IMG/VR virus record: IMGVR_UViG_3300031857_000029
Reading direction: 5' to 3' (one strand)
DNA from: a virus
DNA length: 64,000 bases
Within the stretch, counting starts at the first letter, position 1. Every line of letters starts with the position of its first letter. The notes beneath the pieces were generated by a model. The model was given only the letters and a program-made list of their open reading frames with translations, had not been told where the DNA came from and ran no database searches. Below, in pieces: positions 3,363-17,868 of this stretch. The translations under genes were made by a program, and so were the position numbers.

Positions 3363-3597
3363 TAAGTTGAAGTTAGAAGGAGCACTGAAAGATATGTCTA
3401 CTTCTATGACCAGAGTAGAAGCAGAACGTGACCTTCAAAAGAATATTATTGGAGATATTTGCGAAGAACTCAATCTCAACAAGAAGGTATTCCGTAAGTT
3501 AGCCAAGGTGTACCACAAGCAGAACTTTGATGACGAAGTAAATACCCATCACGAATTTGAGAAGTTATACGAGACTGTAACTAACAAGTCCAAGTAA
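3343..3597 (+). CDS. T4 DsbA-like dsDNA-binding protein
   Basis: S.SMTRVEAERDLQKNII..I.EEL.L.KK.FRKLAKVYHKQNFD is typical of the T4-like DsbA family; GAGG RBS. Confidence 0.75.
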   Translation: MNLTPNDKLKLEGALKDMSTSMTRVEAERDLQKNIIGDICEELNLNKKVFRKLAKVYHKQNFDDEVNTHHEFEKLYETVTNKSK

Positions 3598-3605
3598 AGT
3601 AGTTG

Positions 3606-15686: not shown

Positions 15687-15715
15687 TTGACATTTTGGGT
15701 GACATACATTATATT
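15687..15715 (+). promoter_or_regulatory. sigma70-type promoter
   Basis: TTGACA-N17-TATATT upstream of tRNA-Val. Confidence 0.75.
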
Positions 15716-15805: not shown

Positions 15806-15877
15806 GCGAGTGTCATATAACGGCTATTATCCTAGCCTTCCAAGCTAGAGACGCGGGTTCGACTCCCGCCACTCGCT
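15806..15877 (+). tRNA. tRNA-Gly(TCC)
   Basis: CTAGC-CTTCCAA-GCTAG; GCG acceptor, U73. Confidence 0.93.
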
Positions 15878-15881
15878 CTTT

Positions 15882-15964: not shown

Positions 15965-15993
15965 TTGACAAATTTGAATTGGTTGTTTATATT
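15965..15993 (+). promoter_or_regulatory. sigma70-type promoter
   Basis: TTGACA-N17-TATATT upstream of tRNA-Glu. Confidence 0.75.
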
Positions 15994-16197: not shown

Positions 16198-16414
16198 TCC
16201 GAGGCCTTTTCCCTACCTTTCACCTCGTTAACAGCCTTTGGGCGAATGGAAAGACTTTTAAAAATGATAGGGCGGGTTCTAGGGTCGTTAGGCCTAGAGA
16301 CGTTTTGGCTAGTTTAGTATGGAAACTAGCAGGCGGTTTGGGGAAGCTTGACGAAGTGGTGTGTCCGCCTATATATTTTTAATGAGTGAGCTGATATCTC
16401 ATAACACATCCCCC
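16198..16414 (+). ncRNA. candidate structured ncRNA (unknown family)
   Basis: Consecutive GC-rich stems with no credible ORF (see findings). Confidence 0.4.
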
Positions 16415-16417
16415 GCA

Positions 16418-16489
16418 TTGCCCTCTCGTTCAATGGCAGGACGCCAGGCTTTGGACCTGGCTATCGTGGTTCGAATCCACGGGGGGCAA
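16418..16489 (+). tRNA. tRNA-Gln(TTG)
   Basis: CCAGG-CTTTGGA-CCTGG; U1-A72. Confidence 0.92.
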
Positions 16490-16530
16490 CTTGAAGTAGG
16501 TTACATTTTACCCTTTATGGAGAGTACACC

Positions 16531-16722
16531 ATGTACAAGTTCATTCTCGCAGTAGCAGTAATCAGTCTTTCAGCATGTGCAGCAAAGGAAGAAGTTCAAG
16601 GTGAAGTTGCAGCTGATTCAACAGTTGTAGCACCAGTTGTTGCAGATTCAACCAAGATTGATACCGATTCAATCAAGTCACCAGAAGTAAAGCCAGTAGT
16701 AGAAGGCGAAGCAGCTAAGTAA
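16531..16722 (+). CDS. small lipoprotein
   Basis: Lipobox LSAC; ADST-rich tail; GGAG RBS. Confidence 0.8.
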   Translation: MYKFILAVAVISLSACAAKEEVQGEVAADSTVVAPVVADSTKIDTDSIKSPEVKPVVEGEAAK

Positions 16723-16756
16723 TATTTCGGACTGTGGCTAATACCCACAGTCTCCT

Positions 16757-16827
16757 GCGGTTCTAGTGTAATAGATAGCACGGTAGGCGTCCAGCTTACA
16801 GGTCCGGTGCAACTCCGTGGAACCGCT
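16757..16827 (+). tRNA. non-canonical tRNA-Gly(TCC)-like RNA
   Basis: Acceptor GCGGTTC/GAACCGC+U, D stem GTGT/GCAC, anticodon arm GTAGG-CGTCCAG-CTTAC, T loop TGCAACT. Confidence 0.7.
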
Positions 16828-16830
16828 CTT

Positions 16831-16864
16831 AAAGGGATTCTGTCTTTTCGATGGAATCCCTTTT
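16831..16864 (+). terminator. intrinsic terminator
   Basis: AAAGGGATTC...GAATCCCTTTT. Confidence 0.75.
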
Positions 16865-17498: not shown

Positions 17499-17832
17499 GG
17501 GCCCGACCGGTTTCGACGGGATGTAGATGACTAGATTTTGTGTCCAGTTTAGTAATACTGGTAAAACAGACTAAAAATTTCAACTGGCAATCAATTAGCC
17601 CTCGCTGCGTAAGCAGCCTGACGAAGTAATCTGACCCACATAGGGTTACTATCGTTCATAACTGTGGTGTAGTATCGGAGAGATGAGTTGGTATCTGATA
17701 TCAAATTTACAAACTCTTATCCGTGTGGTTTCGCTGATTATTCAAAACACGGAAACATCTAACAATCAGCTACACACATAAACATTTAGTAGGAAGCAGT
17801 CTCGGACCAGGGTTCGACTCCCTGCGGGTCCA
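17499..17832 (+). ncRNA. ssrA: tmRNA
   Basis: 5' GGGCCCGACCGGTTTCGACGGG, 3' GGTTCGACTCCCTGCGGGTCCA with G3:U70; tag ORF 17586-17612 (A)GNQLALAA*. Confidence 0.95.
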
Positions 17833-17868
17833 CTAATAGTTACGAATCACAATTTTTTTGGAGAACTT

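Follow-up and report, generated by a model that had tools for sequence, protein, structure and literature searches.

The window analyzed here is a 64,000-nucleotide (nt) stretch of the IMG/VR virus record IMGVR_UViG_3300031857_000029, numbered from its first letter, and it is part of the genome of a large freshwater T4-like phage, with genes for a T4-type portal and a large terminase. The portal is most similar to that of Microcystis phage Mel-JY01, with 55% identity, and next to that of Flavobacterium phage immuto, with 51%. ARAGORN counts 21 tRNA genes in the window, which also holds a gene for a transfer-messenger RNA (tmRNA). At 16757-16827, on the plus strand, lies a further tRNA-like gene, here called X, which is a non-canonical paralog of tRNA-Gly(UCC); the phage has a canonical tRNA-Gly(UCC) beside it. 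The comparisons described below show that X is a real, selected tRNA-like RNA and not a decaying gene, that its family is marked by a bulged T stem of four base pairs, and that it is very probably chargeable with glycine. The use to which the phage might put glycyl-X is a more tentative part of the argument. The parts of X and its canonical counterpart are as follows.

16757-16827 (+): X, the non-canonical tRNA-Gly(UCC) paralog, 71 nt, with no encoded CCA and followed by CUU
16757-16763 / 16820-16826 (+): acceptor stem, GCGGUUC / GAACCGC; G1-C72, C2-G71, G3-C70, and G4 are invariant among homologs, and pairs 5-68, 6-67, and 7-66 covary
16766-16781 (+): D arm, with the stem GUGU/GCAC and the loop AAUAGAUA, which lacks GG (read from the letters)
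16783-16799 (+): anticodon arm, with the stem GUAGG/CUUAC and the loop C-G-UCC-A-G (read from the letters)
16804-16819 (+): T arm, with a C-G closing pair, a bulged U in the 3' strand at 16818 (position 64), three more base pairs, and the loop UGCAACU (16808-16814)
16827 (+): discriminator U73, invariant
15806-15878 (+): canonical tRNA-Gly(UCC) of the same phage (ARAGORN; Rfam, 60.2 bits)

Held against the canonical cloverleaf, X has proper acceptor, D, and anticodon stems and departs from it in the T stem, which has four base pairs and a bulge instead of five base pairs. The 5-bp anticodon stem is extended by a Watson-Crick pair between positions 32 and 38 (C-G), inside which lie G33 (16789), the anticodon UCC (16790-16792), and A37 (16793); the variable region is four bases long. 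In place of the conserved G18 G19, U54 U55 C56, and U33 of ordinary tRNAs, the window copy reads AG, UGC, and G33. The canonical copy at 15806-15878 has GG in its D loop, UUC in its T loop, and the T stem GCGGG/CCCGC. A preliminary description of the locus, made from the letters alone, had listed the glycine identity elements, the UCC anticodon, the D loop without GG, the UGC T loop, G33, and the imperfect T stem, along with a normal tRNA-Gly(TCC) at 15806. All of these features can be read in the sequence, and the normal gene is found by both ARAGORN and Rfam.

Standard tRNA finders register X poorly. ARAGORN does not call it at default settings and calls it as tRNA-Gly(tcc), 16757-16828, when the threshold is lowered to 80%. 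The Rfam tRNA model RF00005 gives no match to X even at E<=10 in a 301-nt search (gathering threshold, 29 bits), a model with which the 21 remaining tRNAs in the window reach 43-71 bits. The cloverleaf is nevertheless the minimum-energy fold of X, at -26.6 kcal/mol (z -2.4), and only 3 of 200 shuffled sequences fold as well.

Homologs were gathered by exact-pattern scans of IMG/VR and the JGI metagenomes and with a covariance model trained on the first 11 variants, which was also run on contigs picked by portal similarity, that is, independently of the RNA (G and L numbers are our labels for genomes, contigs, and loci). The result is a set of 21 distinct variants on roughly 80 contigs of uncultured T4-like phages. 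When these variants are aligned, 99.1% of the cells are paired, and double changes are seen in 10 of the 21 pairs, a level of covariation that was reached by none of 500 shuffles and by no slid register. All anticodon-stem pairs covary, as do the three inner acceptor pairs named above. By comparison, G1-C72, C2-G71, G3-C70, U73, C35, and C36 never vary, and these are what we take to be the bacterial glycine identity set, in agreement with the elements first noted at the locus. Covariation among homologs had been proposed in the preliminary description as a check, with random decay as the outcome that would speak against X; the homologs show compensatory change, and decay fails clearly as an account. 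X is also conserved where the flanks are not, since the flanks frequently cannot be aligned between contigs and some relatives (L008 type) have no upstream open reading frame (ORF) at all. Because the identity set is invariant while other pairs covary, and because one subfamily encodes the CCA end (below), X is very probably chargeable with glycine, as had been supposed from its sequence.

Outside these phages we did not find X. It is absent by pattern scan from one genome each of 185,579 prokaryote species, and BLAST against 50,697 phage records returned no homolog of X or of its region. The tRNA mimics of bacteria that were described in 2026 and are included in Rfam, skipping-rope and other families, were considered and set aside, as none matches X.

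The feature that unites the family is the 4-bp T stem with a bulge at position 64, which is maintained by covariation. Folding the T arm in this manner pairs 98.8-100% of cells, with a closing pair that is C-G, G-C, or A-U, a 52-62 pair that is G-C or A-U, and a bulged base that may be U, A, or G. Two other registers were rejected: with a 5-bp T stem that includes a mismatch, one pair stays open in 12 of 13 sequences, and a 9/3 fold, in which the acceptor is extended, fails in 2-3 of 13. Also common to all variants are the D loop without GG, an invariant D-loop G together with an invariant C56, and a Watson-Crick 32-38 pair, which may be C-G, U-A, or G-C. The invariant G is the only one in the D loop (16774 in the window) and is probably G19, pairing with C56. 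In the anticodon arm, double changes are seen at five of the six pairs, no variant departs from U34, C35, C36, or A37, and position 33 is G or U. Whatever the function of X, the family indicates that a bulge at position 64 of the T stem can be stably kept in a tRNA. The nearest structural parallels are the 8/4-type bacterial tRNASec and selC* tRNACys, which are likewise L-shaped tRNA-like molecules whose 4-bp T stem has one bulged nucleotide (PMC7609411). They differ from X in having an 8-bp acceptor stem (12-13 bp of acceptor/T helix), a bulge in the 5' strand (A51a), and Sec or Cys identity; X has a 7-bp acceptor stem, a bulge in the 3' strand at position 64, and glycine identity.

A sister subfamily, found through the covariance model on about 20 contigs, has U33, reads UUC in the T loop, and has a D loop of 7 nt, AACGUCA, also without GG. 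It encodes CCA directly after U73 and is the only tRNA to do so among those examined in the loci of these phages. ARAGORN calls many X homologs as tRNA-Gly at default settings and calls this subfamily at default as well. Since the sister subfamily has U33 and UUC, G33 and the UGC T loop, to which the preliminary description had drawn attention, are traits of one subfamily. The most divergent variant, L227:1015-1085 (-) on metagenome contig Ga0315276_10670674, has three doubly changed acceptor pairs, an A-U closing pair, and a bulged A, and it may mark a third subfamily.

Several properties bear on the fitness of X for ordinary decoding. It always has a canonical tRNA-Gly(UCC) as companion, as seen in the window and the related records G002, G003, G004, G005, G010, and G013. 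Among 122 tRNAs in five phage sequences, position 33 is U in all 121 tRNAs other than X and is G only in X, and in the same set a C-G or G-C pair at 32-38 is likewise found only in X. G33 has been retained through several later compensatory changes within its subfamily. EF-Tu binding was estimated with a published additive T-stem model (PMC3239215, Table 2), in an implementation that reproduced five rows of Table 3 of that paper. The predicted values are -10.5 to -11.0 kcal/mol for canonical phage tRNA-Gly(UCC), with -10.7 for the window copy. For X, the prediction is -9.6 kcal/mol at best, and for the other subfamilies -10.0 to -10.1, all before the cost of the bulge, for which the model has no term. 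For comparison, the model places the bacterial Gly-UCC mean at -10.8 and the staphylococcal non-proteogenic tRNA at -9.5 kcal/mol. Among esterified amino acids, glycine is one of the weakest for EF-Tu, and for this reason tRNAGly bodies need tight T stems (PMC7826273). Outside its anticodon arm X is nearly invariant and the neighboring tRNAs of the same contigs drop to about 60% identity, a comparison that is biased by the manner in which the homologs were found; with that bias in mind, the conservation of the X body suggests an additional sequence-specific partner.

The preliminary description had gone further and regarded X as excluded from the ribosome, a claim of which part survives. Redundancy with the canonical copy, G33, and the weak predicted T stem make a role outside bulk translation plausible. 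The argument drawn from the D loop and T loop fails, because tRNAs that must decode share the same combination. A near-identical D arm, GUGUAAYAGNUAGCAY, occurs with GUGCAAWU in the tRNA-His of many Patescibacteria genomes and in the tRNA-Trp of two other metagenome-assembled genomes (MAGs), and an X-type D arm and T loop are also found in single-copy phage tRNAs for Arg, Ile, His, and Gln (loci L073 and G007; L064, L065, and L068-L075; phage loci L029, L032, and L076-L084; and G004:12695-12774). In one Patescibacteria genome (G007, UBA4787), for which all 48 tRNAs were listed, the sole tRNA-His, tRNA-Tyr, and tRNA-Gly(GCC) combine a D-loop AG with a T-loop UGC, and a relative of the phage studied here has a single-copy tRNA-Leu(UAG) of this type at G004:12695-12774. 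As each of these is the sole tRNA for its anticodon, it must decode, and a D loop without GG combined with a UGC T loop is no sign of ribosome exclusion. The combination probably amounts to an A18-G55 swap with G19-C56 kept, in which position 55 cannot become pseudouridine, and AG/UGC appears to be a widespread alternative tRNA elbow. These tRNAs resemble X in their near-identical D arm and in the T loop UGCAAWU; they differ in having a regular 5-bp T stem, U33, and an anticodon that no other tRNA serves, whereas X is bulged, redundant, and, in the window, carries G33. Standard tRNA models may under-score genes with this elbow, as the missing Rfam match and default ARAGORN call for X illustrate.

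Two observations made alongside this survey concern other tRNAs. An identical tRNA-Arg(UCU) with an encoded CCA is present on two viral contigs (L032 and L036, with 9-23 tRNAs) and on the Saccharibacteria MAG contig JAFWNY010000018.1 (L067), which points either to a Saccharibacteria phage or to mis-binning of a phage contig. In L018, 6 nt downstream of X, there is a low-scoring tRNA-Met(CAU)-like gene (3530-3600, minus strand) with the D loop GUAGUA and the T loop UGCAAUU, and this may be a second non-canonical tRNA.

The cellular tRNAs that X most resembles in its departures from the norm are the non-proteogenic (NP) tRNAGly species NP1-NP3 of Staphylococcus aureus and S. epidermidis, which are glycyl donors for FmhB/FemA/FemB (PMC7826273; PMC3239215). 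Like X, they are extra UCC isoacceptors beside proteogenic copies, and they keep the glycine identity set. They also share a UGC or UGU T loop, a D loop without GG, and a 6-bp anticodon stem with a 5-nt loop. Their T stem (pairs 49-65, 50-64, and 51-63) is predicted to be similarly weak for EF-Tu, at about -9.5 kcal/mol against -9.6 at best for X in a model that does not count the bulge. The differences are as plain. The staphylococcal stem is a regular one of 5 bp and owes its weakness to A-U pairs, whereas X has four base pairs and a bulge; the NP tRNAs are cellular and confined to staphylococci, whereas X is found only in phages, with no sequence homology seen between the two. Nor is G33 an NP feature, UGC is limited to one X subfamily, and no Fem enzyme was found in X-bearing relatives.

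A different consumer of glycyl-tRNA is known in phages. Mom of phage Mu, a protein of GNAT fold, transfers glycine from Gly-tRNAGly to the N6 of adenine in double-stranded DNA, giving 6-NcmdA; the enzyme requires R111 and S124, and the modification shields Mu DNA from restriction (Silva et al. 2026, PMC13219725). Among X-bearing records, G002 and G010 alone reach into the replication module, and both match the Pfam family Mom (PF25680), with 153 bits in G002 and 160 and 123 bits in G010. In alignment with Mu Mom, R111 and S124 are invariant in these proteins, whose sole PDB match is Mu Mom itself (8bv8). The Mom-like proteins come in two size types, of 272-275 aa and 196 aa. DruA-family genes lie about 4 kb from Mom, in the clamp-loader region. 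The Mom-family proteins are a better candidate than a Fem-type enzyme for a consumer of glycyl-X, and one that the preliminary description, which had called for a search for Fem/GNAT aminoacyl transferases, did not consider. The parallel with Mu is that G002 and G010 encode both X and Mom-family proteins, the known co-substrate of the Mu enzyme being Gly-tRNAGly. Where the systems part is that Mu relies on host isoacceptors, whereas these phages have an odd additional tRNA-Gly, which does not adjoin Mom.

The replication module (G002:104.6-118.9 kb; G010:137-148 kb; G026:35-42 kb; L277-L279 and L362-L364) contains one or two Mom-family genes and a DruA-family gene (407-515-aa open frames); neighboring genes encode a ClpP-like protease, a Band-7 protein, a clamp loader, and a DNA ligase. 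The region looks like a candidate for a module in which hypermodification of DNA is coupled to replication. The 275-aa Mom-like gene of G010 is flanked by paralogous 238- and 246-aa proteins (L277:774-1490 and 2259-2999) without a Pfam family; a distant homolog of this pair (about 26% identity) occurs at G005:34510-35160, in the tRNA array between tRNA-Pro and tRNA-Glu, about 1 kb before X.

The distribution of Mom beyond these two records is as follows. Mom-like genes occur in 312 of the 50,697 phage records, and both Mom and X are absent from the complete outgroup genomes of Microcystis phage Mel-JY01 and Flavobacterium phage immuto. G026 has Mom, and its contig ends at tRNA-Glu, just short of the expected X site. 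Records G003, G004, G005, and G013 and the window are uninformative in this respect, because the neighbors of Mom are lacking as well and the module is not covered. In the genome to which the window belongs, a stretch 52.75 kb before the window start has 13 of 71 short words in common with the Mom-like protein of G002, a word match only. The Mom-bearing IMG/VR phages G027-G029, which have few tRNAs, have no tRNA-Gly.

We tentatively favor a reading in which X is a private glycine carrier that evades EF-Tu and serves as donor for DNA hypermodification of the Mom type, perhaps also of the DruA type; we put this forward as a possibility, at somewhat less than even confidence. X would be processed by host RNase P and a host CCA-adding enzyme and would receive glycine from the host glycyl-tRNA synthetase (GlyRS). 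No CCA-adding enzyme was found in G002-G005 or G010. The weak, bulged T stem would make Gly-X a poor EF-Tu ligand, and G33 with the closed 32-38 pair would, in the subfamily of the window, reinforce this effect. As a poor EF-Tu ligand, Gly-X would stay outside the ternary-complex pool, and this free pool of activated glycine could feed phage aminoacyl-tRNA-dependent transferases of the GNAT type, the best candidate users being the Mom-family enzymes of the replication module and possibly the DruA-family enzyme. X would then stand to Mom as the staphylococcal non-proteogenic tRNAGly stand to FmhB/FemA/FemB. To our knowledge, tRNAs reserved for non-ribosomal work have been shown experimentally only in the case of the staphylococcal cell-wall glycine tRNAs. 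If the reading is right, X would be their phage counterpart and the first tRNA dedicated to DNA modification; an EF-Tu-evading phage tRNA-Gly would link the staphylococcal cell-wall tRNAs with the 2026 finding on Mom. It would also account for at least one of the puzzling extra tRNAs of large phages and would provide a simple marker for phages with glycine-derived, restriction-resistant DNA modification. The inference of the preliminary description, a chargeable tRNA acting as donor for non-ribosomal transfer, is partly right, for reasons other than those given.

A number of observations weigh against the donor reading, and one group of them concerns Mom. The link between X and Mom is a co-occurrence within one clade and effectively a single contrast (two records with both, two outgroups with neither), and within this clade X never adjoins Mom or DruA. 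No credible tRNA-Gly was found in 37 + 20 IMG/VR loci around Mom-like genes, and none lies next to Mom in the four cultured Mom-bearing phages Aeromonas AS-sw, Vibrio EniLVp02, Vibrio K460, or Polaribacter P12002L. Mu Mom accepts all host tRNAGly isoacceptors, and Mu encodes no tRNA (PMC13219725). Since the Mu enzyme works with any isoacceptor, and since most Mom-bearing phages carry no tRNA-Gly, a private donor is not required. A second group concerns translation. The EF-Tu figure for X is a rough indication, because the model has no term for bulges, and a T-stem bulge is already known from 8/4-type tRNASec and selC* tRNACys (PMC7609411). U34 and A37 are invariant along with the identity bases, which fits decoding because GlyRS should need neither base. 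The sister subfamily, with U33, its UUC T loop, and its default ARAGORN call, looks fitter for the ribosome.

The alternative that survives best is that X is a working elongator tRNA-Gly(UCC), a divergent spare that decodes GGN and might be kept for gene dosage or for resistance to host factors that cleave or inactivate tRNAs, which the changes in its elbow, T stem, and anticodon loop might confer. We consider this rather unlikely. In its favor, all three anticodon bases and A37 are invariant, the probable G19-C56 pair is likewise invariant, many homologs are called as tRNA-Gly by default, and the sister subfamily adds an encoded CCA to its U33 and UUC. The AG/UGC elbow serves the sole tRNA-His and tRNA-Tyr of a Patescibacteria genome and single-copy phage tRNAs, and bulged 4-bp T stems exist in the tRNASec and tRNACys types cited above (PMC7609411). 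Anticodon-loop changes that evade nucleases are known in phage tRNAs (PMC10264068). Against an elongator stand the constant redundancy of X with a canonical UCC copy, the persistence of G33 in one subfamily where 121 of 121 other tRNAs have U33, and a predicted EF-Tu affinity at least about 1 kcal/mol weaker than canonical for the amino acid that most needs a tight body. The body of X outside the anticodon stem is, moreover, far more conserved than the neighboring tRNAs, with the bias of the homolog search affecting this comparison.

It is less likely still that X is a decoy or sponge that protects the translating pool by capturing a host factor directed at tRNAGly or Gly-tRNAGly, for example an anticodon nuclease or a GNAT toxin that acetylates Gly-tRNAGly; a decoy was an option that the preliminary description had also raised. 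Retention of the glycine identity elements with relaxed ribosome-facing features would suit a decoy, as would the near-complete phage tRNA set with a tmRNA, a pattern often tied to tRNA-targeting defences (PMC10264068, PMC11555353). The likely host group, however, is not known to have a defence specific to tRNAGly, and we found none; the positions that an anticodon nuclease probably reads, 32, 33, and 38, are those that vary; and one gene copy without a dedicated strong promoter would make a weak sponge.

That X is a decaying duplicate, or a mere processing signal for the adjoining transcript, is very improbable: its sub-threshold scores in tRNA finders and its position between a small ORF and a hairpin are the points for it, whereas every varying stem shows compensatory changes, the identity elements are invariant, X persists where contig flanks are unalignable, the upstream ORF is wholly absent in relatives of the L008 type, and one subfamily encodes CCA.

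Scarcely credible, finally, is a donor of the staphylococcal type for a Fem-family transferase that builds peptidoglycan glycine bridges, for which X offers the UCC anticodon, UGC T loop, GG-less D loop, 6-bp anticodon stem with 5-nt loop, and weak predicted T stem (PMC7826273), since the search for such enzymes in related phage records was negative (FemAB, PF02388, and GNAT_6, that is Acetyltransf_6, PF13480, in G002-G006; LPG_synthase_C, or MprF-C, and Leu_Phe_trans, or L/F transferase, in G002-G005 and G010), the hosts of the nearest cultured relatives, Flavobacterium and Microcystis, are both Gram-negative, the NP lineage is reported only in staphylococci (PMC7826273), and X-type genes are absent from the scanned prokaryote species genomes.

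The surroundings of X in the window contain the following features.

16348-16377 (+): sigma-70-like promoter match (TTGACG, 18 nt, TATATT) upstream of tRNA-Gln, a consensus match only
16419-16490 (+): tRNA-Gln(UUG), a conserved neighbor upstream of X (ARAGORN; arrays of relatives)
16531-16722 (+): ORF of 63 aa that has a lipoprotein-type signal (LSAC) and in many relatives lies between tRNA-Gln and X
16730-16737 / 16745-16752 (+): perfect 8-bp hairpin, GACTGTGG / CCACAGTC, just upstream of X (read from the letters)
16834-16864 (+): G+C-rich 7-bp hairpin (16834-16840 / 16854-16860) followed by UUUU (read from the letters)
17499-17835 (+): tmRNA (Rfam, 114 bits; ARAGORN misses the window copy)

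Gene order around X is kept among relatives as Glu, (Ile, Met), Gln, [small ORF], X, Ser, Thr. The stop-proximal end of the 63-aa ORF recurs just 5' of X in several relatives, and its start is seen in L007 and L011; neither this ORF nor the other small ORFs flanking X belong to a Pfam family. The perfect hairpin described earlier upstream of X is present as stated and is not conserved among relatives, the flanks varying by contig. The terminator described downstream was borne out in its parts, a 7-bp hairpin and UUUU, and its score lies under the terminator threshold of the scan tool, so that it is a weak terminator-like element. The promoter match at 16348-16377 is the nearest candidate promoter for a unit of tRNA-Gln, the small ORF, and X. 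It is one of three near-consensus sigma-70-type matches (TTGACA or TTGACG, 17-18 nt, TATATT) that stand ahead of tRNA blocks on the plus strand, the others being at 15687-15715 and 15965-15993.

The tmRNA is also present in relatives, at G002:38245-38582, G004:26708-27044, and G005:20204-20556, and ARAGORN reads its tags as GNYNLALAA, GNNQLALAA, and GNYNSPALALAA. Several tRNAs of relatives have the T loops AUCGUUA or AUCGUCC, for example GGGATCGTTACCC, which look like a U54-A58 pair reversed to A54-U58; such loops occur at G004:5096-5168 (tRNA-Lys), G004:17000-17075, G003:2743-2815, and L008:9663-9735 (tRNA-Thr).

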